A stretch of DNA of 62,223 nt, the filler included. It is 7 parts of 7 records of this genome, joined end to end, with 100 filler letters (N's around TTAATTAATTAA, not from the genome) between each part and the next. Parts side by side here need not be neighbours in the genome. Positions count along the whole stretch, not along the records: positions 20,119 to 31,005 come from SRR20825010_4220; 6 more parts are not named here. One strand, given 5' to 3'. The number at the start of each line of letters is the position of its first letter. The first letter of the stretch is position 1. Below the pieces are notes generated by a model. That model did no database searches, was not told where the DNA came from, and saw only the letters and a program-made list of their open reading frames with translations. Shown here one piece after another: positions 18,045 to 57,935 of the stretch. The position numbers and the translations under genes are program-made.

Positions 18045-18180
18045 TTTCGCCCCTCCTTCCCTTTAAACTCATCAATAGCAGGCTTTTACGCCTGTGCTGC
18101 AGGCCGCTGATACCCGCTTTTTCGGGCTGATCTACAGATGGCCTGATAATTGCTTATGCCCTGTTATGGGCCAATTTCTG

Positions 18181-19272
18181 ATGGGTGACATTACGTTGCA
18201 CAAACGACTACTGGATCACCTGCGTACCGCAGTGATCATGCTGGACGATGCCTTGTGCGTGCGCTACCTGAACCCGGCGGCAGAAATGTTGCTGGCGACC
18301 AGCACCAGCCGTGCCGTCGGTCAGCCTCTGCCCGATTACTTTTTCGATGATGAAGAAGCCCGCCTCGCCATTCAGCAGTGCATTGATGATGAGCACCCCT
18401 TCACCCAGCGTGAAGCGCGGCTGTCGGTGGCGCCGGGCCATGAAATCATGGTGGATTATTCGGTCAGCCCGATTAACGAGCCGGGCCAGCCTTTGTGTCT
18501 GCTGATGGAAATGCAGTCACTGGATCGTTTGCTGCGGATCAGTCGTGAAGAAGCGCTGATTCATGCGCACCAGGCTACGCGGGCATTGGTGCGGGGTGTG
18601 GCCCATGAAATCAAGAATCCGCTGGGTGGCATCCGCGGTGCGGCCCAGTTGCTGGAGCGGGCGCTGCCTGACCCGGAGCTGACCGAGTACACCAAGGTCA
18701 TTATCGATGAAGCCGACCGGCTGCGGTCGGTGGCGGACCGCATGCTCGGCCCGCGCAAGCCGCCCGAGTTCCGTGCGGTAAATGTGCACGAGTGCCTGGA
18801 GCATGTGCGCCAATTGCTGCTGGCGGAATACCCCAAAGGCGTGGCGATCTGGCGCGATTACGACATCAGCTTGCCGGATGTGATCGCCGACCGGGACCAG
18901 CTGATTCAGGTATTACTGAACCTTATCCGCAACGCCACCCAGGCGTTGCTGGAATCGAAGACGCCGGCACCGCGCATCACCATGCGTACCCGGGTGTTGC
19001 GCCAGTTCACCATTGGCGCCCAGCGACACCGTTTGGTGTTGCGCATGGACATTATCGATAACGGCCCGGGCATTGCCGAGGATGTGCAGGAAACCCTGTT
19101 CTATCCCATGGTCAGTGGCCGTGCCAGCGGCACCGGGCTGGGACTTTCCATTGCACAGTCCATCATCAGCCAGCATCAGGGGTTGATCGAGTGCGAGAGT
19201 CAGCCGGGCGAAACCGTGTTTAGCATCCTGCTGCCCATGGAGCAGCTGGATGAAACAGAGAAACCGACATAG
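18181..19272 (+). CDS. glnL: Nitrogen regulation sensor kinase NtrB
   Basis: PAS domain, AHEIKNPLGGIRGAAQLL, DNGPGI and GTGLGL motifs; start inferred. Confidence 0.95.
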   Translation: MGDITLHKRLLDHLRTAVIMLDDALCVRYLNPAAEMLLATSTSRAVGQPLPDYFFDDEEARLAIQQCIDDEHPFTQREARLSVAPGHEIMVDYSVSPINEPGQPLCLLMEMQSLDRLLRISREEALIHAHQATRALVRGVAHEIKNPLGGIRGAAQLLERALPDPELTEYTKVIIDEADRLRSVADRMLGPRKPPEFRAVNVHECLEHVRQLLLAEYPKGVAIWRDYDISLPDVIADRDQLIQVLLNLIRNATQALLESKTPAPRITMRTRVLRQFTIGAQRHRLVLRMDIIDNGPGIAEDVQETLFYPMVSGRASGTGLGLSIAQSIISQHQGLIECESQPGETVFSILLPMEQLDETEKPT

Positions 19273-19359
19273 CGTTAATTGCGCTGCTTTGAACAGAGCG
19301 ACGCCATACAAGCCGGCCGCTGATTGCGGTGGCGATGGAAACAACAGGAGTAGCAGGTC

Positions 19360-20018
19360 ATGAGTGTCAGTATTTGGGTTGTGGATGATGACCGCTCCAT
19401 TCGCTGGGTGTTGGAAAAGGCGCTGGGCCAGGAAGGCTACGCGGTGACCTGCTTTGAAGATGCGGATGAAGCGCTCAATACCCTGGAACAGGGCGGGCAG
19501 GAACCGGAAGTGCTGATCAGCGACGTGCGCATGCCCGGCACGGACGGGTTGCGGATGCTGAAAATTCTACAGCGCAAGAATCCGGATTTGCCGGTGATCA
19601 TCATGACGGCGCATTCCGATCTGGATTCTGCCGTGGCGTCCTACCAGGGTGGCGCGTTTGAATACCTGCCGAAACCGTTTGATGTGGATGAGGCGGTGGC
19701 GCTGGTGCGCCGGGCCATCAAGCATCGGGAAGAGTCCCGTGGCGATTTTCCTGAACCGGTTGAAGAAGCGCCCACCGAAATTATCGGTGAAGCCCCGGCC
19801 ATGCAGGAAGTGTTTCGTGCCATTGGCCGGTTGAGTCACTCCAATGTGACGGTGTTGATCAATGGTCAGTCCGGTACCGGTAAGGAGCTGGTAGCCCGGG
19901 CTTTGCACCGCCATTCCATGCGGCGCGAGAAAAACTTCGTTGCCCTGAACATGGCGGCCATTCCCAAAGACCTGATCGAGTCAGAGTTGTTCGGTCATGA
20001 AAAGGGAGCCTTCACCGG
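19360..20018 (+). CDS. glnG: Nitrogen regulation response regulator NtrC (3' truncated)
   Basis: VDDDRSIRWVLEKAL, GQSGTGKEL and ESELFGHEKGAFT motifs. Confidence 0.95.
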
Positions 20019-20118
20019 NNNNNNNNNNNNNNNNNNNNNNNNNNNNNNNNNNNNNNNNNNNNTTAATTAATTAANNNNNNNNNNNNNNNNNNNNNNNNNN
20101 NNNNNNNNNNNNNNNNNN
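20019..20118. other. Artificial contig linker
   Basis: N44-TTAATTAATTAA-N44 (stops in all frames); composition changes across it. Confidence 0.98.
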
Positions 20119-20168
20119 GCTTTAGCGGATGAGAAGCGAAGGAACTAACAAGCTAATCGGAAAACAAA

Positions 20169-20795
20169 TTACCTAATCACATTTACCCAATCATCTGGGC
20201 TAATGTTATGGAAACCATTCATGCCCATGGCCATGGCCGCTTGAATATTCTCTAATCTATCATCAATAAATAAGGTGCGCGAAGCATTCAATTGATGATC
20301 GTTAAGAATAGGTTGCCATGCGCCAAAGTTAGGCTTGCGCTCCCCCACTTCCTGTGAAAAGTAAACTTGGGTGAAATACTCATGAAACGACTTATTTGGA
20401 GAAATCAAGTCAACAAGTCTGAGAAAAAACCTCGCATGGATATCGTTGGTATTGCTCATTACAAAGAGCTTATACGTTTTTGAAAGTTCTTCAAGCTTCT
20501 GAAGTCGCTGCATTGGAATTTGCCCAAGCATAGCATTCCATGCACCATCTAAAATATTATCTTCAGAAAACACATTTAATGACTCCCTTAAATGTGCTCT
20601 AAAAGTAGGGTCGTCAATATGGCCTGTTTCATAAAGCTTAAAGAATTCAGCCGTTTTCGACAGCTCAAGTACTTCATTTTCAGTACGCCCAGAGATTTCA
20701 GCAAAGGCCTTAATAGTCGCGGCTTCATCTAAATTAATGATTACCCCACCTAAGTCGAAAATGATTGAATCTATATTGCTTAAATCTGGCGTCAT
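20169..20795 (-). CDS. HAD-family phosphatase (YihX-like)
   Basis: FDLGGV, MSNTN, RKP and FIDDRLENI motifs. Confidence 0.9.
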   Translation of the reverse strand: MTPDLSNIDSIIFDLGGVIINLDEAATIKAFAEISGRTENEVLELSKTAEFFKLYETGHIDDPTFRAHLRESLNVFSEDNILDGAWNAMLGQIPMQRLQKLEELSKTYKLFVMSNTNDIHARFFLRLVDLISPNKSFHEYFTQVYFSQEVGERKPNFGAWQPILNDHQLNASRTLFIDDRLENIQAAMAMGMNGFHNISPDDWVNVIR

Positions 20796-20925
20796 GTTTT
20801 GTTGTTTAATTAATCGCAAATATGTAACATTGCACTCCCAAAATCAAAGGGTTTAAAGCACAATGTAGTCTGTTCATTTTTCAGAATAGCTGCAACATAA
20901 AACCAGCCGCTTTAAATAAGATCTT

Positions 20926-20999
20926 GGGCCTATAACTCAGCTGGTTAGAGTATCTGACTCATAATCAGAAAGTCCCTGGTTCGAGCCCAGGTGGGCCCA
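20926..20999 (+). tRNA. tRNA with CAU anticodon, probably tRNA-Ile2 (elongator Met not excluded)
   Basis: GGGCCTA/TGGGCCC acceptor stem, TCTGA-CTCATAA-TCAGA anticodon arm, GGTTCGAG T-loop. Confidence 0.92.
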
Positions 21000-21000
21000 C

Positions 21001-21036
21001 AAAAAAGCCTCTCAATTAATTTTGAGAGGCTTTTTT
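21001..21036 (+). terminator. Terminator after the tRNA
   Basis: AAAAAAGCCTCTCAA-loop-TTGAGAGGCTTTTTT. Confidence 0.85.
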
Positions 21037-21483
21037 ATTGGACAACTATTGGGAAACAAAAAACGCCTTTAGATCAGGTGGCTATAAGCATGTCTTTTAG
21101 TATAATTGCAATATGCTCATCTAGTTCTTGTGAACATTACAAAGGCTCTTATTAATCATCACACGCCAGTTTCTTACTTACTCATAATAGCCCGAGTAGG
21201 TTATTATGTGAACATAAGGTAGCGCCCACCCTTTCTCTTTCCTCATTCATTTCGAAAAGCATTGATTCATCTAGATTTGGAATGCCCTCAAAATTTTTAA
21301 ATAGGTCATAAGTACATATTAACCATTGATTATATATTTATTTCCTTAGTTTTTAATAATTCACTTATTACATGAATTAATTATTAATAAAATATTTCTA
21401 TATCTCTTTTTTAATAGCTATAATTGATTATACTTCTAAATATTCTATGTATTTAGAAGTTAGAAAAAACATGTGAGGATAGT

Positions 21484-22575
21484 ATGTATGATATGAAAAT
21501 GACTGGTGAAATTAATGGACCGAGTATTTTTAAAGACATACCTGAAGTCTACAGTTCTCTTTTTTCGGATTTTTTTCAAAGTAAAGTTCCCCAAGAATCC
21601 TTAGCTACTTGCAACAATTGCGCAATGGTTTGCAGAGATAAAAAAAAGGATATTACAAAGCTAGCAATGCGGCCTTTCCAAGAAGATAAAAAATGTTGTA
21701 CATATCACCCCTCATTACCTAGTTACTTGGTTGGAGGAGCTTTAACCCAGGCCTCACCCGAAGGGGTAAATAGACTTAGAAAGGCAATTGCTAAAAAAAT
21801 CGGAGTAAGCCCTTTTGGTCTTAACGCACCCAATGTCTACAATGTGCTTTATAAGAACCAATCTGGTGGATTTGGAAATAGCGAAAGTCTGCTATGCCCT
21901 TATTATTTGAAAGAATCTGGTAATTGCAGCATTTGGAAGTTTAGGGAGTCAGTTTGCTCAACATATTTCTGCAAGCATGTTAGTGGAGCAAGTGGTAAAC
22001 AGTTCTGGACAGATGTAAAGAAATATCTTCAACATACAGAACAAAGTCTCACATTATACCTAGCCAAAGAAGCCAAACTTGATTATTTTCTTAAAGTTAC
22101 AAGTGAATTTAAAAGCCCCTCGTCTCAATTAACAGCTCAGGAATTAGATGGGCTGCCTCCAATAGATTACGAAAAATTATGGGGAGACTGGATCGGTAAA
22201 GAAGAGGAGTTTTATAAATGGACATATCAAAAAGTCAATGAAATGTCTAAAAGTACTTTTGATGAAATTACAGGTATTCGACAAAAGGTGCTTTTAAACA
22301 ACCTTGAAATCCAAAGATCAGAAATGCTCGATATACCTAAGTATTTAAAAATTCATTCGGATTGGCTACCTAAAGAGGGAGAACTGAATACGGTAATTCA
22401 TTTCAAAACCATTGATATTCAATTTGGATTACCCTCCCAAGTATTAAATGCTTTCGATGGAAAAAAATCCACACAAGAGGTGATACAGCAATTAGATGAA
22501 AAGGAGAAAATTGAAATTGAAGTGCCACTAGTCATTTCTTTATTTCACTATGGAGTTCTAGAAGAACAAAAATAA
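21484..22575 (+). CDS. Cys-rich YkgJ/FliB-like putative Fe-S protein with C-terminal PqqD/RRE-like winged helix
   Basis: CNNC, KCC and CPYY..GNCSIW..R..VC.TYFC; C-terminus FDGKKSTQEVIQQL...LVISLFHYGVLE. Confidence 0.6.
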   Translation: MYDMKMTGEINGPSIFKDIPEVYSSLFSDFFQSKVPQESLATCNNCAMVCRDKKKDITKLAMRPFQEDKKCCTYHPSLPSYLVGGALTQASPEGVNRLRKAIAKKIGVSPFGLNAPNVYNVLYKNQSGGFGNSESLLCPYYLKESGNCSIWKFRESVCSTYFCKHVSGASGKQFWTDVKKYLQHTEQSLTLYLAKEAKLDYFLKVTSEFKSPSSQLTAQELDGLPPIDYEKLWGDWIGKEEEFYKWTYQKVNEMSKSTFDEITGIRQKVLLNNLEIQRSEMLDIPKYLKIHSDWLPKEGELNTVIHFKTIDIQFGLPSQVLNAFDGKKSTQEVIQQLDEKEKIEIEVPLVISLFHYGVLEEQK

Positions 22576-22621
22576 TAGAGCAACAAGGTGTTGCTCTTCA
22601 TTAACATAAACAATTACTATT

Positions 22622-22843
22622 ATGGATACCAAAAACAAATTAAAAATCGGATTTAGTACATTGGCCATAGCAGCATTTATGACTGTAGGAGCTAGTTCCG
22701 CTGAGGCATTTAATTCCGAACCCGACTGCTCGGATGGTTCACCCCACGTGGATTGCCCTATTTGGAATTTAAAAGTTGGTGCAGGTGAGTTTTCTTGTAC
22801 TACAGGTGGAGAATGGAAATGCCAAGATCCAACTAAACAATAA
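22622..22843 (+). CDS. Small secreted four-Cys peptide A (putative precursor)
   Basis: Sec-like leader ending SAEA; core C-x8-C-x13-C-x7-C; paralogous to 24079-24288. Confidence 0.85.
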   Translation: MDTKNKLKIGFSTLAIAAFMTVGASSAEAFNSEPDCSDGSPHVDCPIWNLKVGAGEFSCTTGGEWKCQDPTKQ

Positions 22844-22924
22844 GCATCACTGAATGCAAAGGTATTTGTTTAAAACATCTTTGCATTCACAAATTTTCAG
22901 CCTAAAAAACATTAAATCCGGAGT

Positions 22925-23995
22925 ATGAAAAACAAAGAAATCTTCCTGCTAATTTTAATCTTTTGTATCTCTGCTTGTGATACCTCCACCGAAAGTAATG
23001 TGATATCAAAAGGCGATCTCCCTTTTGACCCTGTTGCAATTTTGAATGAGAATAATTCGCTTTTAGGTGATTTACTTGGGTTTGATTTCATCACTAAGAC
23101 AGATTTCATTGTTGCCACAAAATCTGGATTTATTGTTACATACAACACAAAAGGAGATAGACTTCAAAGATTTTCAAAAATTGGAACTGGCCCATATGAG
23201 TACCTCTTCCCTTCTGTAATTAAAGTAGCAAATAATAAAATTTATGTTTGGTGTGAGCAACTTTTAAAATTGATTGTATATGACATCAAGGGAAAGCCGC
23301 TTGAAGAGTATTCCGATTTTTCCAAAGCAATAAAGGACTTTGTGATAAGAGATAACATCGTCTACTTCTACATGTCAGGCGGAGGACTTTATGCTCTAAT
23401 AGAAAAGTATGATCTGAAAAAAAGAGAATCAATAGGCTTTTACGGTAAAGAAGAAAATGAAGATGAAGCCATGAGTTTGAATGCTTGTTCAGGTGGACTT
23501 CTCTTAGAAAAGGAAACTCTGCATTATATTCGAGCTGGTTCACTATCAATAGAATCAGTTAATAATGATGTGGAGAAAAGTAAGTTAATTACGGATAATG
23601 AATTTGTAATTAAAAAATTAGAAGATTCCGAATTCGCTGAACTAAAAAATAGTATGAAATCGGTACTTACTTTTATATCCAATAATAGCTATGTTACTGG
23701 ACTTTTTAAATTTGGGAAGAACTACATAGTAAAAACTGAAATCGGATCGCTAGAATATGAGTCCTTCACAGATTTAAAAACATGGGATACCTCTAAAAGA
23801 TTTGAAAAATATTATATTCTTGATGAGAATTTTACGCTTATAGAAACATATACATTGCCATATTCTTTAAATCGAAATAACTGTTGGTTTCAATCTAATG
23901 GTGAAAACCTTTACTTTATTGATATGGTCGAAACAGCGGGACATGATGACTATCAATACCGATTGAACAAAGTTAATCTAGGTCTAGATTATTAA
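22925..23995 (+). CDS. 6-bladed beta-propeller lipoprotein (DUF5128-like)
   Basis: Lipobox ISAC, GTGPYEY motif and beta-rich repeats. Confidence 0.75.
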   Translation: MKNKEIFLLILIFCISACDTSTESNVISKGDLPFDPVAILNENNSLLGDLLGFDFITKTDFIVATKSGFIVTYNTKGDRLQRFSKIGTGPYEYLFPSVIKVANNKIYVWCEQLLKLIVYDIKGKPLEEYSDFSKAIKDFVIRDNIVYFYMSGGGLYALIEKYDLKKRESIGFYGKEENEDEAMSLNACSGGLLLEKETLHYIRAGSLSIESVNNDVEKSKLITDNEFVIKKLEDSEFAELKNSMKSVLTFISNNSYVTGLFKFGKNYIVKTEIGSLEYESFTDLKTWDTSKRFEKYYILDENFTLIETYTLPYSLNRNNCWFQSNGENLYFIDMVETAGHDDYQYRLNKVNLGLDY

Positions 23996-24078
23996 TATTA
24001 AAGTAAAATATAAAATAAATAATTTTAAAATAAACTTTATAATATAGCAATTATTGTATATAAATTAAATATTATACT

Positions 24079-24288
24079 ATGAATAAAAAAAGTAAATCAA
24101 AAATTGGGCTAGCATCATTGGCTGTAGTAGGTTTTATGACCTTAATTAATAATAGCGCTGGAGCTTGTGACCCTACACTACCATGGGATACTGGATGTGC
24201 TGAATATGACATTGTAATTCGTTCAGGGTCATTCTATTGCATTGAAGGAGGGACATGGAAATGCACTGACCCCTTTAAGGAGGAATAG
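24079..24288 (+). CDS. Small secreted four-Cys peptide B (putative precursor)
   Basis: Sec-like leader ending SAGA; core C-x9-C-x13-C-x7-C; paralogous to 22622-22843. Confidence 0.85.
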   Translation: MNKKSKSKIGLASLAVVGFMTLINNSAGACDPTLPWDTGCAEYDIVIRSGSFYCIEGGTWKCTDPFKEE

Positions 24289-24422
24289 CTACATTCACAT
24301 CCCCTAATTGTGAACCTTGTATGCAAACTATTTGCAACGAGATAAATTAGTGCTAGCATAAAACCATAAGAATTTGATTTTAAGAAAACAGGCAAGCTCC
24401 AGTGAAGAATATTAAGTTTGCA

Positions 24423-24563
24423 TTACCCTTTCTTCCCCAACAACGAAACTTGAAATTCAAGTCGTTTGATTTCGCGGAGAAGGCTGTTTTTATCCATTTG
24501 ATTCCAGTTGTAGATCTTAAGCAGGGACATGGTAATAAAACCAAGTAGTGTACAAACAGCCCA
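24423..24563 (-). pseudogene. Orphan 3' fragment duplicating the end of the 25215-25598 gene
   Basis: Translates to WAVCTLLGFITMSLLKIYNWNQMDKNSLLREIKRLEFQVSLLGKKG*, 42/46 aa identical to 25215-25358 by manual alignment; in-frame stop immediately upstream. Confidence 0.88.
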
Positions 24564-24704
24564 TTACAAAGCTCATGTGGCTCTTTCTGCATTATATGAA
24601 TAGTCAGGAATCAGTATAAATTATTAGGGTAATCACCACTGACAAATTCATAAATCACCCATGGGTTGCATCATTTTCTTTTGGATTTTCGTTATCTTCA
24701 AGCG

Positions 24705-24923
24705 ATGACTAATATAACTATAGATAAAGACGTTCGACTCCGTAAAACTCACTTCAAAGACCTTGAGGAATTAAAATTAGAGCTTATTTTGGTTGAAGAA
24801 GAAGCTTTTGAACTTTCTCCTTCGCAAGTAAAAATGTTGAAAGAGCGAGAAGATGAAGCCGATAAAGCAACTGACAAAGGCTTAGCTTGGGATAGATCAC
24901 TTATCACTCGAAAGCATGGCTAG
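24705..24923 (+). CDS. Putative antitoxin (addiction module component)
   Basis: Small charged protein with LSPSQVKMLKERE...GLAW; overlaps the toxin start. Confidence 0.72.
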   Translation: MTNITIDKDVRLRKTHFKDLEELKLELILVEEEAFELSPSQVKMLKEREDEADKATDKGLAWDRSLITRKHG

Positions 24924-25209
24924 TTTCTCTCTCCGTCCTTCAGTATATGAGGACATTCAAAGGGCTGTTAACTACTACGACCTAATAAACCCTAAACTCT
25001 CCGAGGCATTTCTTGATGAAATTGAAGATTGCTTTGCCAATATCCAAGACTTACCAGAAGGCTACCAAGAACGACTTGGGAAAATACGAATAGCGTTCCT
25101 TAGGCGATTCTCTTTTGGTGTTTCATACAAACTCTATGACACTCGTATAATTGTTATAGCCGTTTTCCACACAAGCCAAGACCCTGATAATTGGAAAGGA
25201 AAAGAGTAA
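24916..25209 (+). CDS. RelE/ParE-family type II toxin
   Basis: 97 aa; A..YY, FL.EIE, LRRFSF.V.Y and IIVIAVFHTSQDP pattern. Confidence 0.85.
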   Translation: MASFSLRPSVYEDIQRAVNYYDLINPKLSEAFLDEIEDCFANIQDLPEGYQERLGKIRIAFLRRFSFGVSYKLYDTRIIVIAVFHTSQDPDNWKGKE

Positions 25210-25214
25210 TTTGT

Positions 25215-25598
25215 TTACTCTCCCTTCTTCCCCAACAACGACACCTGAAATTCTAGCCGTTTGATTTCTCTGAGCATGGCATTTTTATCCATTTGATTCC
25301 AGTTATAGATTTTAAGCAGGGACATGGTAATAAAACCAATCAGTGTATAAACAGCCCACTCTAGTTTATCTGTCATTACATCGGTATTGAGCATTTCCAC
25401 AAACGTATATATTGAAAGACCGAGCACTACTAAGTTGAAAACAAACATAACTACAGTGATCCAGCTGTTCTTTCCTTTAAACAGGCCTAAAATCATCTGA
25501 GGCATATTTTGTTCTCCTAACTGATCGTAATAAGCAGCCTCTTCTTTAGTAAGCGCTTGGTGGATTAAATCATCCATTTCTTTTTCTGAATCATTCAT
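25215..25598 (-). CDS. DUF6768-like small membrane protein (probable anti-sigma partner)
   Basis: Two TM segments and LLKIYNWNQMDKN.MLREIKRLE; coupled to an ECF sigma gene. Confidence 0.75.
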   Translation of the reverse strand: MNDSEKEMDDLIHQALTKEEAAYYDQLGEQNMPQMILGLFKGKNSWITVVMFVFNLVVLGLSIYTFVEMLNTDVMTDKLEWAVYTLIGFITMSLLKIYNWNQMDKNAMLREIKRLEFQVSLLGKKGE

Positions 25599-26139
25599 AA
25601 CTCTCGTTTTTAAGTTTCTTTTTTAACTGTTCTCGTGCATGGTATAAACTTGACTTTACAGTGCCTTCTGGCTTATCGAGTATCTGAGCAATGATTTTTA
25701 TCGGAGTCTTTTCCAGATAGAAAAGCCGTAAGACCTGTTGATGCTGCTCAGGCAAATCATAGATAGCCGCCAACATAAGCTCCATTTGATCCTGCGGTTC
25801 AGCTTCTGAAGGTGAACTATTTTCAACCTCAAACTGATGTACGCTGTTCCTTTCGCGCTGCTGCTGTTTAATCCAATCTGCCGCCCTACGCTGGACAATC
25901 TTATAAGCCCAAAACCGGAACAAAGCAGGATCTTTCAGCTTGTGAATGCCTTTTATAATAGAGACCCAACTTTCTTGCGCAATTTCATAAGCTTGATCTT
26001 GGTCTTTCAAAAAGCCATATGACCAGCTTAACACTTTGGGCTGCCAGCGTTTCCATAACAAGCCAACCGCAGTTTGGTCTCTGTCTTGGCAGCGCAAAAC
26101 AAGCAACTCATCAAAAATTTGGTCTGAACTCCGTTTCAT
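25591..26139 (-). CDS. ECF RNA polymerase sigma factor
   Basis: Region 2 (AQESW...FRFWAYKIV) and region 4 (IAQILDKPEGTVKSSLYHAR). Confidence 0.92.
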   Translation of the reverse strand: MKRSSDQIFDELLVLRCQDRDQTAVGLLWKRWQPKVLSWSYGFLKDQDQAYEIAQESWVSIIKGIHKLKDPALFRFWAYKIVQRRAADWIKQQQRERNSVHQFEVENSSPSEAEPQDQMELMLAAIYDLPEQHQQVLRLFYLEKTPIKIIAQILDKPEGTVKSSLYHAREQLKKKLKNESYE

Positions 26140-26284
26140 AAAAATCTAATAAGGAGTCGCATAAATGATTAAAAGGTTCAATTAAAAAATAACGAAGAGA
26201 CGAATACTAGTTCGACCAAAAGTCAGATTGAATACAAGATACCCAAAAAGAGGGGCATTCCTTAGAGCCTGATATTTTTATGGC

Positions 26285-26292
26285 TACTTTTG
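26285..26292 (+). promoter_or_regulatory. Bacteroidota -7 promoter element
   Basis: TACTTTTG matches TAnnTTTG, about 25 nt before the next ATG. Confidence 0.65.
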
Positions 26293-26317
26293 CCCCAGTT
26301 CAAAAAAACCATACCTC

Positions 26318-27307
26318 ATGCTCAAAATTGGCGTTCTAGGTGCCGGCCATCTCGGCAAAATTCATATCAAATGCATTAAAGACATTCCTGAATACGAACT
26401 CGTAGGGTTCTATGATGCTTCAGAAGAAAATGCAAAAGCAGTTGCAGAAGAGCATGGTATTAAAGCTTATGCTACTATTGCTGAATTACTCGAAGTGGTA
26501 GACGTAATCGATATCGTCACTCCAACTTTATCTCATTTCGATTGTGCCAAACAAGCACTAGGTGCTGGAAAGCACGTGTTTATTGAAAAGCCAGTCACCA
26601 ATACTGTTGCTGAAGCCGAAGCATTGATCAAACTTTCGAGAGCGAAAGGGCTGAAAGTTCAGGTGGGTCATGTAGAAAGGTTCAATCCAGCTTATATAGC
26701 TGCCAAAGACTACCTTAAGCAGCCTATGTTTATTGAAACGCACCGTTTGGCGCAATTCAACCCAAGAGGTTTGGATGTTCCTGTGGTGCTGGATTTAATG
26801 ATTCATGATATTGATGTGATTTTGCATGCTGTGGGTTCGGAAGTAAAGAACATTTCAGCCAGTGGAGTAGCCGTAGTAAGCGACACGCCTGATATTGCCA
26901 ATGTGCGTTTAGAATTCGAAAACGGATGCGTGGCGAACCTTACGACTAGCCGCATAGCCGTGAAAAACATGCGCAAATCACGTTTCTTCCAAAAAGACGC
27001 TTATGTATCGGTAGATTTCCTTGAAAAGAAATCTGAAATCGTAAGAATGCAGGAGGCTACTGGAGAAGAAGGCCCTTTCTCAATGATCTTAGATTTAGGT
27101 GAAGGCAAAAGTAAAAAGGAAATCATTTTTGAAAACCCTAAAATTCATCCAACAAACGCCATTCGTGAAGAGCTCTTTACTTTTAATCAGGCGATAAACA
27201 ATAATACCGAGCCAATTGTTACCATTGAGGATGGCTATAAAGCTTTAAAAGTGGCTCAACAAATTCTAGACATTATTGAAGTCAACCTTAAACAGATTGG
27301 CTCTTAA
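26318..27307 (+). CDS. Gfo/Idh/MocA-family oxidoreductase
   Basis: GAGHLG, IEKP, VGHVERFNP and DLMIHD motifs. Confidence 0.92.
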   Translation: MLKIGVLGAGHLGKIHIKCIKDIPEYELVGFYDASEENAKAVAEEHGIKAYATIAELLEVVDVIDIVTPTLSHFDCAKQALGAGKHVFIEKPVTNTVAEAEALIKLSRAKGLKVQVGHVERFNPAYIAAKDYLKQPMFIETHRLAQFNPRGLDVPVVLDLMIHDIDVILHAVGSEVKNISASGVAVVSDTPDIANVRLEFENGCVANLTTSRIAVKNMRKSRFFQKDAYVSVDFLEKKSEIVRMQEATGEEGPFSMILDLGEGKSKKEIIFENPKIHPTNAIREELFTFNQAINNNTEPIVTIEDGYKALKVAQQILDIIEVNLKQIGS

Positions 27308-27325
27308 ACATAAACAACAAACACT

Positions 27326-28153
27326 ATGGACAACAGAAAATACTTACCCGCTATCGTCATTTCTGTCATTGCGGTGATTATCCTTTTTGCAATATCAAGC
27401 AGCGTTTTTTATACCATCCAAGCCAATGAAAGGGCTGTACTCTTCAAAAAATTCTCTGGAGGTTTAGACAAAGACAATGTAATCACTCAAGGCTTTCATG
27501 TAAAGGCGCCTTGGAATGAGTTGATCGTTTTCGATGTGGCCGAAACACAAGTAGAAGAAACAATGGACGTGCTCGACAAAAACGGTTTGAGCATTAAAGT
27601 AGATGTATCGGTTCGTTTTTACCCAAAGTTCGAGCGTGTAGGCTATATCTATGAGAGCTTCAGGAAAAGTTACGTTTCTACTTTAGTTACCCCTGAAGTG
27701 CGTTCAACTGTACGTCAGGTAATGGGGCGCTATACAGCAGAAGAAATATACTCTACTAAGCGGCCAGAAGTAGAAACTGCCATTAGAACAGAAACAGCTG
27801 ATGTTTTGGGTAGTGAATCTAATAATATAGAAATGAGAGCCCTTCTAATTCGATCAATCAATCTCCCTGAAAAGATTAAGCAAGCGATTGAAAGTAAATT
27901 GCAACAAGAGCAAGAAGCTTTGGCTTATCAGTTCCGTTTGGACAAAGAGAAGAGTGAAGCTGAAAGAAAAAGGATCGCTGCTGAAGGTGAATCTGCCGCC
28001 AATAAAATTATTAACAATAGCTTAACACCAAGCCTTTTAAAGATGCGAGGCATTGAAGCAACGTTGAAATTGGCTGAATCTCCTAACTCTAAAGTGGTCG
28101 TTATTGGTCAAGGAGATGAGGGCTTACCATTAATTTTAGGGGGTAACAATTAA
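27326..28153 (+). CDS. Prohibitin/SPFH family protein
   Basis: N-terminal TM, band-7 domain and EAERKRIAAEG coiled coil. Confidence 0.9.
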   Translation: MDNRKYLPAIVISVIAVIILFAISSSVFYTIQANERAVLFKKFSGGLDKDNVITQGFHVKAPWNELIVFDVAETQVEETMDVLDKNGLSIKVDVSVRFYPKFERVGYIYESFRKSYVSTLVTPEVRSTVRQVMGRYTAEEIYSTKRPEVETAIRTETADVLGSESNNIEMRALLIRSINLPEKIKQAIESKLQQEQEALAYQFRLDKEKSEAERKRIAAEGESAANKIINNSLTPSLLKMRGIEATLKLAESPNSKVVVIGQGDEGLPLILGGNN

Positions 28154-28253
28154 AAATAACTAAAGTAGGGAACAAGAGTTTCATTTAAGTGTTTAATACA
28201 TTAAATTCGCTCGCCTAATAAAGCACCCCAAACTAAGTAAAACACTTTATAGA

Positions 28254-29540
28254 ATGTCAAGTACTGCTGAGATTAAAGTTGACGGTAAAACATTAGAACT
28301 ACCGGTAATTGAGGGCACCGAAAATGAGAAAGCCATAGATATTTCTTCTCTAAGAGGAGAAAGTGGCGTAATCACTATCGACCCAGGATTTAAAAATACA
28401 GGTTCAACCAAAAGCGCTATCACTTTCCTTGATGGTGAAAAAGGAATTCTACGTTACAGAGGTTACTCAATTGAAGAGTTGGCTGAGAAGTCTACCTTCC
28501 TTGAAGTTTCATACCTTCTGATTTACGGAGAACTCCCGACCCCAGAACAGTATAAAGATTTCACCAAAACCATCACCAATCACACATTGGCGCATGAAGA
28601 CATCAAGAAGATTCTAGAAGGGTTTCCTTCAACTGCGCACCCAATGGGCGTATTATCTTCTTTGGTTTGTGCTCAAACAGCCTTCTACCCTGCCTCTTTA
28701 GACCCTAACAGGGCGGCTCCGGAAGTGGACATGAGTATCATTCGTTTGCTTGCCAAAATGCCAACTTTTGCGGCTTGGTCATACAAAAACCAAATCGGGC
28801 ATCCAGTAAACTATCCAGACAATAGTTTAAACTACTGTAGCAACTTCCTTAAGATGATGTTTTCTAACCCAGCAGAAGCTTATGAGGTTGATCCTGTAGT
28901 TGCGAATGCCTTAGATAAATTATTAATCTTACATGCTGATCACGAACAAAACTGTTCTACTTCAACAGTAAGAATGGTAGGTTCGTCTCATGCGAGTTTG
29001 TATGCTTCCATTTCAGGTGGAATCAATGCCCTTTGGGGACCGTTACATGGTGGTGCTAACCAAGCGGTAATCGAAATGCTTGAAAGCATCAAAAAAGATG
29101 GTGGAGACACTAAAAAGTGGATGGCGAAAGCTAAAGACAAAAACGATCCATTCCGTTTGATGGGCTTCGGACACAGGGTTTATAAAAACTTTGATCCAAG
29201 AGCAAGAATCATCAAAAAAGCAGCTGACGATGTTTTAGCAAAATTAGGAGTAAACGATCCTATTTTAGAGATCGCCAAAGGTTTGGAAGAAGAAGCTTTG
29301 AACGATCCTTACTTCGTAGAAAGAAAACTATATCCAAATGTTGATTTCTACTCGGGTATTATTTATAGAGCTTTGGGTATTCCTACTGACATGTTTACCG
29401 TTATGTTTGCCATGGGTAGACTACCAGGCTGGATTGCACAATGGAAAGAAATGCGTGAGAACAAAGAACCTATCGGAAGGCCAAGACAAGTATACACTGG
29501 TTACAACGAAAGGGTTTACGCCCCTATAGACAAAAGATAA
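28254..29540 (+). CDS. gltA: Citrate synthase
   Basis: LHADHEQNCSTS, GPLHGGAN, MGFGHRVY and PNVDFYSG motifs. Confidence 0.97.
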   Translation: MSSTAEIKVDGKTLELPVIEGTENEKAIDISSLRGESGVITIDPGFKNTGSTKSAITFLDGEKGILRYRGYSIEELAEKSTFLEVSYLLIYGELPTPEQYKDFTKTITNHTLAHEDIKKILEGFPSTAHPMGVLSSLVCAQTAFYPASLDPNRAAPEVDMSIIRLLAKMPTFAAWSYKNQIGHPVNYPDNSLNYCSNFLKMMFSNPAEAYEVDPVVANALDKLLILHADHEQNCSTSTVRMVGSSHASLYASISGGINALWGPLHGGANQAVIEMLESIKKDGGDTKKWMAKAKDKNDPFRLMGFGHRVYKNFDPRARIIKKAADDVLAKLGVNDPILEIAKGLEEEALNDPYFVERKLYPNVDFYSGIIYRALGIPTDMFTVMFAMGRLPGWIAQWKEMRENKEPIGRPRQVYTGYNERVYAPIDKR

Positions 29541-29562
29541 TTGAGTTTTTACTCATTATTTT

Positions 29563-29596
29563 AAAAGGAGCTTATTTTACGATAAGCTCCTTTTTT
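29563..29596 (+). terminator. Terminator after gltA
   Basis: AAAAGGAGCTTAT-loop-ATAAGCTCCTTTTTT. Confidence 0.85.
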
Positions 29597-29749
29597 ATTG
29601 GTATGAACGCCAAAACACCGATTAAACTAGCCAGAATATTAATCATACTAAAACTGTGTTTACTAATTTATAGTTTTGATATTCAACTGATTTACAGTAT
29701 ATTATACTTCTATTTGATAAATATTCAAAATCACTAAATTAGAAACTAT

Positions 29750-30208
29750 ATGAATTTCCAAGGAGTAAAAGCACCAGAGGTACCCAAAGGCGTTCAGCAA
29801 TACCGCCCAGTTACCGATTACATGACCCACGAGGTTATTTCATTCAGCCCTGAACAAAGCATAGCAGAGGCTATGGATATCTTTTTAGACAAGCACATTT
29901 CAGGCGCACCCGTCATTGATGAGAAAGGAAAAATTATTGGAATACTTTCAGAGATTGATTGTATGAGAATTATGGTAGACGAAGCTTACCACAACCTTCA
30001 CCACGGGAAAATTACTGTTGCAGAATACATGAGCAATAACGTTGCTACAGTATCAGTTGACATGGATGTATTGGACTGCGCCCAAAAGTTCTTAAGAACG
30101 CATTATAGAAGGTTTCCCGTAGTAGATGTGAACGGTAGAATCAAAGGCCAAGTAAGCAGAAGAGACATTCTTCAAGCCACAAGAGACTTAAAAACTTCTT
30201 CTTGGTAG
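29750..30208 (+). CDS. CBS-domain pair protein
   Basis: ISGAPVID...GILSE.D and RRFPVVD...GQVSRRDIL motifs. Confidence 0.9.
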   Translation: MNFQGVKAPEVPKGVQQYRPVTDYMTHEVISFSPEQSIAEAMDIFLDKHISGAPVIDEKGKIIGILSEIDCMRIMVDEAYHNLHHGKITVAEYMSNNVATVSVDMDVLDCAQKFLRTHYRRFPVVDVNGRIKGQVSRRDILQATRDLKTSSW

Positions 30209-30211
30209 AAA

Positions 30212-30496
30212 CTATAACACATCCTGCCATTTCTCATGACGCTGTAGCGTAGCCTTTGCAAAAGGACATAGCGGAATGATTTTGACTTTATTTTTACGTG
30301 CATACTCCACGGCATGCTCAACTAACTTTAGCCCCATACCTGTACCCCTGAGTGTGTCGCTTACTTCTGTATGGTCAATAATAATTTTGTCTAAACCCGC
30401 TTTCGAGAAAGTCATTTCTGCCAAACGCTCTCCCTCCTGTTCAAAATAAAAACTTCCCTTATTATCTGTTTCTTGTTCCTGAATAGTGGCTACCAT
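30212..30496 (-). CDS. GNAT-like acetyltransferase (YjdJ-like)
   Basis: IIDHTEV, LRGTGMG and IIPLCPFA motifs. Confidence 0.9.
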   Translation of the reverse strand: MVATIQEQETDNKGSFYFEQEGERLAEMTFSKAGLDKIIIDHTEVSDTLRGTGMGLKLVEHAVEYARKNKVKIIPLCPFAKATLQRHEKWQDVL

Positions 30497-30900
30497 GATT
30501 CCCCTTTAAATTTACAGTACCAAGTTAAGAAACAAGAAGGTGAAATATAAATCACAGCCCATAATTGAAAAAAATAAAGCCCATGTAAATAAGTTACATG
30601 AGCTCCATTTTTTTAGGTTGAGGAAATCCAGAATAACTGAGCCTCTTCAATTATTCTACTTTACAAAGGAGGATAGATAAGAATTTATTAAACTCAGTGA
30701 AACTCACAAATCATTTCTATAAGTATTTTACCTAGATCAAATCAATAAAACCAAAGAGAAAAGACAAAGATTTGATAAGCTAAAGCCCATAGATCACTTC
30801 TAAATCGAAATAAATTTTCATTGTAGAGTTTTTTATCCCACTCAAGACCAAACAGTTGAAGAATATTCGAAAAATTAGTTCGCTTTTTTAGCCTCTGATG

Positions 30901-30931
30901 TTTGTAAATCAAGAACAGTATACTACTTTTG
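30901..30931 (+). promoter_or_regulatory. Bacteroidota housekeeping promoter (-33/-7) of tRNA-Asp
   Basis: TTTG-N19-TACTTTTG. Confidence 0.7.
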
Positions 30932-30970
30932 CATCACCTTAAACGAAAGGGATTACAAAACAAAGATATT

Positions 30971-31005
30971 GGAGCGGTAGTTCAGCTGGTTAGAATGCCT
31001 GCCTG
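30971..31005 (+). tRNA. tRNA-Asp 5' half (truncated at contig end)
   Basis: GGAGCGGTAGTTCAGCTGGTTAGAATGCCTGCCTG is the typical tRNA-Asp(GTC) start; anticodon cut off. Confidence 0.82.
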
Positions 31006-31105
31006 NNNNNNNNNNNNNNNNNNNNNNNNNNNNNNNNNNNNNNNNNNNNTTAATTAATTAANNNNNNNNNNNNNNNNNNNNNNNNNNNNNNNNNNNNNNN
31101 NNNNN
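31006..31105. other. Artificial contig linker
   Basis: N44-TTAATTAATTAA-N44. Confidence 0.98.
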
Positions 31106-35692: not shown

Positions 35693-35792
35693 NNNNNNNN
35701 NNNNNNNNNNNNNNNNNNNNNNNNNNNNNNNNNNNNTTAATTAATTAANNNNNNNNNNNNNNNNNNNNNNNNNNNNNNNNNNNNNNNNNNNN
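35693..35792. other. Artificial contig linker
   Basis: N44-TTAATTAATTAA-N44. Confidence 0.98.
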
Positions 35793-47402: not shown

Positions 47403-47502
47403 NNNNNNNNNNNNNNNNNNNNNNNNNNNNNNNNNNNNNNNNNNNNTTAATTAATTAANNNNNNNNNNNNNNNNNNNNNNNNNNNNNNNNNNNNNNNNNN
47501 NN
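47403..47502. other. Artificial contig linker
   Basis: N44-TTAATTAATTAA-N44. Confidence 0.98.
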
Positions 47503-53258: not shown

Positions 53259-53358
53259 NNNNNNNNNNNNNNNNNNNNNNNNNNNNNNNNNNNNNNNNNN
53301 NNTTAATTAATTAANNNNNNNNNNNNNNNNNNNNNNNNNNNNNNNNNNNNNNNNNNNN
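53259..53358. other. Artificial contig linker
   Basis: N44-TTAATTAATTAA-N44. Confidence 0.98.
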
Positions 53359-57835: not shown

Positions 57836-57935
57836 NNNNNNNNNNNNNNNNNNNNNNNNNNNNNNNNNNNNNNNNNNNNTTAATTAATTAANNNNNNNNN
57901 NNNNNNNNNNNNNNNNNNNNNNNNNNNNNNNNNNN
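57836..57935. other. Artificial contig linker
   Basis: N44-TTAATTAATTAA-N44. Confidence 0.98.

Follow-up and report, generated by a model that had tools for sequence, protein, structure and literature searches.

A set of four co-oriented genes at positions 21484-24288 of the window (the whole stretch of DNA that was analysed, 62,223 nucleotides with filler included) is read here, with moderate confidence, as a system resembling those that produce ribosomally synthesised and post-translationally modified peptides (RiPPs). It would combine a leader-guided peptide-modifying enzyme, built of a cysteine-cluster domain and a RiPP recognition element (RRE), with a Cys-rich substrate exported by the Sec route and a beta-propeller protein as the extracytoplasmic partner. 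In some clades of its family, the enzyme would perhaps modify proteins rather than peptides. The set forms a conserved, mobile cassette in a marine bacterium of the Bacteroidota that resembles Roseivirga. The four open reading frames (ORFs) announced in the earlier note were all recovered on the plus strand, coding for proteins of 363, 73, 356 and 69 amino acids in that order, with the gene of peptide A starting 47 bp past the enzyme gene and that of peptide B 84 bp past the lipoprotein gene. The features of the cassette are as follows.

21484..22575, plus strand: enzyme, an ORF of 363 amino acids with an eight-Cys domain and a C-terminal winged helix.
21610..21972, plus strand: Cys-cluster module of the enzyme (residues 43-163), with CxxC, then CC after 24 residues, then C-x9-C-x9-C-x4-C.
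22336..22572, plus strand: C-terminal beta3-alpha3 winged helix of the enzyme (residues 285-363), from the predicted structure.
22622..22843, plus strand: peptide A, a candidate precursor of 73 amino acids, with the signal (residues 1-29) at 22622-22708 and a 44-residue core with four Cys.
22925..23995, plus strand: lipoprotein of 356 amino acids, a predicted relative of DUF5128/PF17170, with the signal and lipobox up to Cys18 at 22925-22978.
24079..24288, plus strand: peptide B, a candidate precursor of 69 amino acids, with the signal (residues 1-29) at 24079-24165.

By its sequence, the 363-residue enzyme is predicted to be a cytoplasmic protein of an unnamed family. It has no hydrophobic N-terminus (the best 12-residue Kyte-Doolittle mean is 0.48), and its start lies perhaps five to six codons further in, the closest homologue beginning at the residue aligned with M7. 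A word-indexed search gave 105 homologues, a scan with one genome per species gave 155 relatives among 177 candidate stretches, and a scan of metagenome contigs 494 among 566. An exhaustive profile search of 1.84 billion representatives returned 1,846 clusters at 50% identity, 1,134 of them at E-values (E) <=1e-30. Members keep the two-part architecture throughout: of the 1,846 clusters, nearly all of the best 150 match profile positions ~2-365 and have lengths of 344-426 amino acids, and the long family members P0191 (667 amino acids) and P0192 (644 amino acids) carry no informative fused domain. By name, the sources include Roseivirga, other Bacteroidota, Myxococcota, Acidobacteriota, Gemmatimonadota, Chloroflexota, Lysobacterales and others.

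Eight cysteines (C43, C46, C71, C72, C138, C148, C158 and C163) are invariant in a 25-member alignment of the family, and several aromatic and Arg residues around them are also kept. The kinship with YkgJ/CxxCxxCC proteins that had been proposed for this region stands as a remote relation, but not as membership of the Pfam family. Matches to PF03692 were found in 16 of the 25 members (best E 0.002), all of them below the cut-off. Moreover, the enzyme alignment matched six true PF03692 proteins with an hhalign probability of 87% (E 4e-6) over 32 columns, which correspond to the C138-C163 module. The six proteins pass the Pfam cut-off and come from three genomes (G001-G003) that also carry the enzyme; a PF03692 search of these genomes retrieves other proteins, not the enzyme homologues. 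The second Cys module, common to the enzyme and the PF03692 proteins, reads C ... G-x-C-x-I-W/Y-x-x-R-P ... C-R ... C. Because of the weak matches in 16 of 25 members and the profile-profile match to the six true PF03692 proteins, the N-terminal half of the enzyme is treated as a putative divergent Cys-cluster domain of the YkgJ/CxxCxxCC type, not as a member of the Pfam family. No match to any NCBIfam model was found for the enzyme.

The Cys module is probably a metal or Fe-S site, by analogy with the flagellin methyltransferase FliB, which is the only studied protein with a similar motif. According to PMC8598068, FliB carries an oxygen-sensitive [4Fe-4S] cluster on a CX4CX3CC motif, has eight conserved Cys and methylates flagellin lysines in the cytoplasm, for which S-adenosylmethionine (SAM) and a reductant are needed. 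As with the role proposed here, a protein substrate is there modified in the cytoplasm before its export (PMC8598068). The window enzyme shares with FliB/YkgJ proteins of PF03692 a Cys-rich N-terminal region and with FliB the number of eight conserved Cys. It differs from them in its sub-cut-off score, its split first motif and the presence of an extra helical region and the C-terminal winged helix, by comparison with PF03692 proteins. The whole-protein enzyme profile gave nothing significant against PDB sequences, and whole-model searches gave no convincing fold match for residues 1-285, in which no cofactor-binding fold was recognised; nor was a SAM-binding motif identified in the enzyme. 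In the ESM Atlas, the best named cluster for residues 1-285 reached 0.83, below the level that would count as more than a lead, with PF03692 on 15% of its members.

In an AlphaFold2 model of the enzyme (pLDDT 84.7, pTM 0.84), the C-terminal domain (residues 285-363) has three strands and, after them, three helices. The whole model was compared with 48,161 PDB representatives (VIA, 50 rows listed), and the only chains with Z >=5, all on residues 285/286-363, were MibB (5.7), TigE (5.3) and Rv2067c (5.1), values in a range (Z <8) that can reflect a common arrangement. RiPP enzymes matched this domain in nine of the 50 rows listed (MibB, TigE, MadB, ThcOx, TbiB1, MccB, PbtF, TbtB and LynD), and the first Foldseek match of the whole model was TbiB1 with a bound leader peptide (E 0.43). 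When the domain was modelled alone (pLDDT 89.2), Foldseek ranks 1-4 were taken by TbiB1, TruD, LynD and LynD again (E 0.12-0.39, TM 0.41-0.52), and RiPP leader-binding proteins occupied 14 of the 50 VIA rows (Z 3.0-5.1). Across the searches, the best full-length fold matches of the domain were the RiPP enzymes MibB, TigE, MccB, ThcOx, TbiB1, PbtF, TbtB and LynD at Z 3.8-5.7. The matched regions of MibB, LynD, MccB and others are, except where the entry titles say so themselves, presumably leader-binding domains. Furthermore, the best PDB sequence match of the domain profile was PqqD (5sxy, E 0.38), covering nearly the whole domain.

On the basis of the model, the C-terminal domain of the enzyme is likely to be a PqqD-like RRE, as had been suggested beforehand; the best full-length matches are indeed RiPP leader-binding domains, with weak scores. 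It resembles the RRE domains of TbiB1, LynD/TruD, MibB/NisB/MadB, MccB, TbtB, PbtF and ThcOx in having the beta3-alpha3 winged helix over the whole 80-residue length, and the window enzyme, like RRE enzymes, adjoins leader-bearing short ORFs. Its identities to them are only 8-20%, and the domain is fused to one that is new to RiPP classes within the literature searched. The full-text literature covered by this search, which most subscription journals lie outside, held no paper linking the enzyme family or PF03692 to RiPPs, in agreement with the claim that no RiPP class is built on this type of enzyme. A co-fold of the enzyme with peptide A scored 0.01 against a mark of 0.34; it was run without family alignments or controls and counts neither way.

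Peptides A and B are paralogues, as claimed, with 38% identity (E 3e-15). Each has three to four Lys/Arg in the first eight residues and an uncharged stretch of 15-19 residues that begins at residue 9, and four Cys follow a -3/-1 site near residue 29. A Sec-type tripartite signal (3-4 Lys/Arg, 15-20 uncharged residues and a site at 29-30) was recognised with a simple script in all nine family peptides. The window peptides have a conserved N-terminus (Lys-x-Lys-Ile-Gly and a hydrophobic stretch) and a hypervariable four-Cys core: among the first 19 columns of the peptide alignment nine are invariant (M1, K4, K6, K8, I9, G10, L14, A15 and F19), and in the rest only two, G55 and C67. A conserved leader followed by a hypervariable core is the look of RiPP precursors and bacteriocins, and the Sec-type signal of peptide A (residues 1-29) may double as its leader. 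Relatives of the peptides fell into seven clusters among 5.8 billion proteins, the closest relative of peptide B being P0112. In P0114, the same N-terminus is joined to an unrelated six-Cys core; the longest contigs of P0114 and of the enzyme homologue P0004 both measure 16,833 bp, which suggests that the two share one contig. No match of peptides A and B to precursor families of Pfam or NCBIfam was found. The core of peptide B opens with Cys30, and it is possible, judging by this position, that it is cleaved as a small lipoprotein.

The 356-residue protein between the two peptide genes starts with a hydrophobic N-terminus ending in a lipobox-like I-S-A before Cys18. It had no direct Pfam match at E up to 1 and none in NCBIfam, and only two close homologues were found for it in the set of 5.8 billion proteins. 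The earlier note took it for a six-bladed beta-propeller lipoprotein, and its comparison with P0106 agrees with this: the two are 44% identical, and P0106, named a 6-bladed beta-propeller, passes the PF17170 threshold (E 4e-12, 46.4 bits vs 22.9). The lipoprotein is, by this homology, a putative relative of the DUF5128/PF17170 six-bladed beta-propellers. These form a multi-copy family, with 11 profile matches in the Roseivirga metagenome-assembled genome (MAG) G001; unlike them, the window protein itself has no Pfam match. In the literature searched, the names DUF5128/PF17170 are only mentioned in passing, with no function given.

The order enzyme, peptide, lipoprotein is found not only in the window, but also in L001/L081 (enzyme 58% identical), L082 (58%) and L083 (49%), L001/L081 being a Roseivirga MAG and a near-identical ocean scaffold. 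In a tblastn search of 160 loci with the peptides and the lipoprotein, these were found only in L001/L081 and L082; on inspection, L083 has the same order with a diverged four-Cys peptide and a lipoprotein, so that the lipoprotein gene follows the peptide gene in L001, L082 and L083 as well. The four cassette enzymes make one clade (support 99), and no two of the cassettes have the same genes around the trio. The second peptide gene after the lipoprotein belongs to the window only; L001 lacks it, and none was seen in L082 or L083. By eye, a second small lipoprotein (158 amino acids, with C-x-x-C) follows the propeller at L083:3165-3641, with integrase-like ORFs just beyond it.

The proposed mechanism, in which we infer metal binding, leader binding, catalysis, the export route and the role of the propeller, would run in four steps. 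While still in the cytoplasm, a newly synthesised precursor would be held by the winged helix at its conserved N-terminal segment. The Cys-cluster domain, probably with a [4Fe-4S] or other metal centre as in FliB, would alter one or more core residues; the only precedent for the chemistry is SAM-dependent methyl or radical transfer. The same N-terminus would then serve as the Sec signal and be cut near residue 29, with disulfides forming outside the cytoplasm. Finally, the DUF5128 propeller lipoprotein would act on the exported peptide as a binder, an immunity protein or a processing factor.

The genomic context of the enzyme family elsewhere was surveyed in 130 non-redundant loci (enzymes <90% identical) out of 148 with an enzyme ORF. 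Blind clustering of the small neighbouring ORFs yielded too many spurious Arg/Pro/Ala-rich ones from high-GC loci, and a count by motif and distance took its place. It covered ORFs of 30-110 amino acids with an acidic double-glycine leader pattern, with reversed sequences as the control.

0-500 bp from the enzyme: 23 double-glycine ORFs (19 loci), 1.95 per 10 kb; control 5.
500-1,500 bp: 7 double-glycine ORFs, 0.35 per 10 kb; control 3.
1,500-3,000 bp: 9 double-glycine ORFs, 0.36 per 10 kb; control 6.
3,000-6,000 bp: 10 double-glycine ORFs, 0.23 per 10 kb; control 4.

The density of double-glycine ORFs is thus about six-fold higher within 500 bp of the enzyme than beyond. Within 1.5 kb, such an ORF is present in 24 of the 130 loci, a list in which L010, L015, L058, L070, L153 and the window (peptide B, a chance GG) were judged spurious, and which misses L004, L016 and L039, whose peptides were seen otherwise. 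The peptides belong to several unrelated families in Acidobacteriota, Lysobacterales, Ktedonobacterales, Bacteroidota and unassigned sediment contigs, with sub-threshold matches to TIGR04149, leader_Chryseo and double-glycine bacteriocin models. The check proposed in the earlier note, whether short Cys-rich ORFs recur beside the homologues, turned out positive as regards the short ORFs, but most of these precursor-like peptides have no Cys, and Cys as the target of the enzyme is unsupported.

The homologues recur within recognised RiPP clusters as well as beside short precursor-like ORFs. RiPP or bacteriocin machinery lies within 6 kb of the enzyme in a minority of the loci, namely C39-peptidase ATP-binding cassette (ABC) exporters in eight, LanB-like proteins in three, LanC-like proteins in two and Asn-synthetase-like proteins in two. 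A HlyD gene is near the homologue in 10-11 loci, and genes of B12-radical-SAM, radical-SAM/SPASM and YcaO proteins are near it in L100, L102, L111 and L133. In L078, from Roseivirgaceae, the surroundings are a lasso-type set with an Asn-synthetase-like cyclase, a PqqD protein, a transglutaminase-like protease, an ABC transporter and several short precursors. The family member there (L078:6001-6828) is only 275 amino acids long, matches query residues 10-281 and may be truncated or frameshifted.

In a FastTree phylogeny of 128 enzymes, with context labels curated by eye, the window enzyme falls into a clade of 39 rows (support 95), of which 20 have a precursor-like gene next to the enzyme: 15 double-glycine, four Sec-type and one lanthipeptide context. 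Many rows of this clade labelled 'none' are short contigs (1-3 kb) that hold no flanking sequence. In a third group (33 rows, support 84), nine contexts are of the double-glycine kind.

The double-glycine systems with C39 ABC exporters (such as the TIGR04149 GG-Bacteroidales radical-SAM-modified RiPPs and class II bacteriocins) are similar in that many enzyme homologues adjoin such peptides and exporters. They differ from the window, where the peptides have a Sec-type signal instead of a double-glycine leader and the stretch examined holds no C39 exporter. A Lys-hydrophobic-Lys-hydrophobic element near the N-terminus was found in four of five Sec-type peptides and in 14 of 39 double-glycine ORFs (seven of 28 loci, all from one related clade), as well as in just 47 of 4,141 other small ORFs. 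It may be a recognition element, which is to be taken only as a lead, basic residues being usual at the start of a signal peptide. By eye, a Lys flanked by hydrophobic residues was seen in nearly all putative cores, which would fit a FliB-like modification of lysine.

Tentatively, and with somewhat less conviction than for the cassette itself, the whole enzyme family is seen as a large undescribed family of RiPP maturases, spread over many phyla, which would join a FliB/YkgJ-like Fe-S domain to an RRE and perform a chemistry new to RiPPs. In small double-glycine clusters its members would be the sole modifier, and in lanthipeptide, lasso and radical-SAM/YcaO clusters they would do tailoring work; in the Roseivirga-like lineage, the family would have been re-wired to Sec-signal leaders and a dedicated propeller lipoprotein.

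Some further observations were made on these loci. The large sediment-metagenome clusters L100:800-11705 and L102:21-10867 have the enzyme homologue in mid-cluster. Their four or five double-glycine precursors share a Lys-rich leader, and two or three genes of B12-binding radical-SAM proteins, a radical-SAM/SPASM gene and, in L102, YcaO are also present. The same proline-rich nonapeptide, F/L-N/D-P-Q-P-E/D/L-P-P-G/A, opens the core right after the GG in several unrelated loci (peptides L102:3036-3224, L114:877-1071, L127:5753-5908 and L139:162-314, with a variant at L043:1417-1605); we know of no described RiPP with this motif. Small SurA-N-like proteins, or a peptidyl-prolyl isomerase with a SurA-like N-domain, stand between exporter genes and precursors at L117:4198-4602, L133:1518-1925 and L127:4140-4880. 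At L043:5722-8390, in a Ktedonobacterales MAG, a double-glycine peptide, the enzyme homologue and a membrane-anchored WD40 beta-propeller follow one another, an echo of the window with a propeller of a different family; upstream of these there are a further five genes of double-glycine peptides and a C39 exporter.

Several results weigh against reading the cassette as a RiPP-like system. As to the enzyme itself, its Pfam match to PF03692 (E 0.057, 14.6 bits) is below the 23-bit cut-off, and there is no contiguous CxxCxxCC motif, the cysteines being split into C43-x2-C46 and, 24 residues later, C71-C72. No fold match of the C-terminal domain is statistically strong (Foldseek E >=0.12, Z <=5.7), other winged helices such as SEA/GATOR subunits, Fur and MecI score alongside the RiPP enzymes, and the Pfam PqqD model matches only one of 25 members (E 0.27) and misses the other 24. 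As to the context, the survey relied on crude ORF lists for its gene calls, and curation of the double-glycine set was in part done by eye. A clade of 56 rows (support 98), largely from Myxococcota, has no peptide neighbour, and known RiPP machinery was not seen there either. In loci of the Hyalangium type, a peptidase S46 gene and a kinase gene enclose the enzyme gene so tightly that no peptide gene would fit in, and L002/L084, with an enzyme 46% identical to that of the window, has neither peptide nor propeller. Finally, G001, the MAG from which L001 comes, has a single enzyme gene and two peptide-lipoprotein pairs far away from it, on other contigs. These pairs, found among nine other loci inspected, are L162:180-1662 (77 amino acids, five Cys) and L169:1210-2640 (84 amino acids, six Cys); both peptides are Sec-type, Cys-rich and directly beside a lipoprotein of ~377-390 amino acids, as the association of small secreted peptides with propeller lipoproteins invoked in the earlier note would have it. 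Since the L162 and L169 pairs stand alone, the peptide-propeller module needs no adjacent enzyme.

This last point leads to the main rival explanation, which we regard as unlikely, though well ahead of the others: the peptides and the propeller would be a self-contained secreted module of unmodified disulfide-rich proteins with a cognate receptor, immunity or folding partner, and the enzyme would have another substrate or be optional. The enzyme-free pairs and the 11 propeller paralogues of G001 speak for it, as do the distant match of the L162 peptide to the peptide profile (E 0.006) and the large parts of the enzyme family without a peptide neighbour. However, the enzyme is directly upstream of the peptide in all four members of the cassette clade despite their differing flanks, the N-terminus of the enzyme-linked peptides is far more conserved than a Sec signal requires, and relatives of the enzyme form part of RiPP clusters.

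It is considerably less probable that the enzyme is a metal- or redox-sensing transcription factor, in which an Fe-S or Zn Cys cluster and a DNA-binding winged helix would control the adjacent peptide genes. Eight invariant Cys would suit a sensor, and the winged helix also matches the DNA-binding Fur, Nur, PerR, MecI, PadR and SAMD1 at Z 3.0-3.7. These matches, however, cover the helical half only (model residues ~25-84), whereas the strand-strand-strand-helix-helix-helix order is of the PqqD type, and the enzyme genes lie within biosynthetic operons with precursors, radical-SAM and YcaO genes and C39 exporters, a placement that would be expected of a maturase rather than a regulator. Slightly more improbable still is a non-catalytic chaperone or targeting factor that keeps the Cys-rich precursors reduced and export-competent, its Cys cluster being structural Zn: the likeness of the domain to an RRE, the annotation of PF03692 as just 'putative zinc- or iron-chelating' and the lack of a recognised cofactor-binding fold in residues 1-285 would agree with it, but most homologue-adjacent peptides lack any Cys that would need protection and depend on C39 exporters instead of Sec, the strict invariance of the eight Cys and the nearby aromatic and Arg residues suggests an active centre, and in the small clusters L127, L117 and L031 the homologue is the only enzyme candidate recognised.

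The window consists of seven contigs, and the joints, each made of two 44-N runs flanking a stop-codon linker, are at 20019-20118, 31006-31105, 35693-35792, 47403-47502, 53259-53358 and 57836-57935. The contig of the cassette (20119-31005) has a GC content of 33-42% throughout (~37% overall), and the preceding one of 58-61%. The AT-rich islet in which the earlier note had placed the genes is therefore an artefact of a contig junction, the drop in GC at 20 kb being the joint between a high-GC and a low-GC contig. The tRNA upstream is real (484 bp away), but the idea of an island inserted at a tRNA was dropped in view of this joint and of the finding that none of the four related loci scanned has a tRNA near the cassette. 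Over the seven contigs the GC fraction differs widely (0.58-0.61, 0.33-0.42 and 0.45-0.59), and their probable source is a set of different organisms in one bin or metagenome. The neighbours of the cassette on its contig are listed below.

20926-21000: tRNA-Met, 484 bp upstream of the enzyme gene.
Upstream of the cassette, minus strand: HAD hydrolase gene (Pfam).
24666-25209, plus strand: ParE-family toxin PF05016 (E 2e-7) and a small upstream ORF overlapping it by 8 bases.
25215-26139, minus strand: DUF6768 membrane protein gene overlapping an ECF sigma factor gene (Pfam).

The translations at 18094-20018, on the high-GC contig before it, include a histidine kinase and a response regulator, named NtrB-like and NtrC-like by eye; the regulator is cut by the contig end. 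An inverted repeat with a 9-bp stem (22577-22597) lies between the stop codon of the enzyme and peptide A; it is terminator-like on the minus strand and not above chance. A scan of 20900-24700, of a kind that does not cover Bacteroidota promoters, gave 14 promoter-like sites vs 15.6 expected and, with this repeat, one terminator-like site vs 1.7. No RNA run was listed for 21400-24300, and contigs of two DNA-like runs cover most of the stretch without differences, which shows presence only.

The system would work like an RRE-dependent RiPP pathway and, as regards export, like the bufferins. Bufferins are Sec-exported, Cys-containing RiPPs made by MNIO/DUF692 enzymes, and they share with the cassette a cytoplasmic enzyme, a Sec-signal leader, a Cys-bearing core and a locus with no dedicated exporter or leader peptidase. 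The enzyme families, in contrast, are unrelated, and neither DUF692/MNIO nor DUF2063 was found by Pfam among the nine proteins encoded in 20169-26139. The enzyme family is probably new to the RiPP field, within an otherwise RiPP-like system.

If the proposed reading is true, the enzyme would represent a new class-defining family for ribosomal peptide natural products, and ~1,800 clusters of 'hypothetical' proteins would gain a function. It would also be the second known role of the YkgJ/CxxCxxCC fold besides flagellin methylation, and genome mining through known enzyme families or the Pfam PqqD model would miss such clusters. With a Sec signal as the leader and a cognate surface propeller, the arrangement would be a second, independent example of peptides modified in the cytoplasm prior to Sec export, and it would give a handle on what the DUF5128 lipoproteins, abundant in Bacteroidota, do. 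One enzyme and one 70-residue substrate make up a small system, which is therefore directly testable. Overall, the locus itself is small and rare, yet it leads to an unnamed family of large size, the function of which can be tested.

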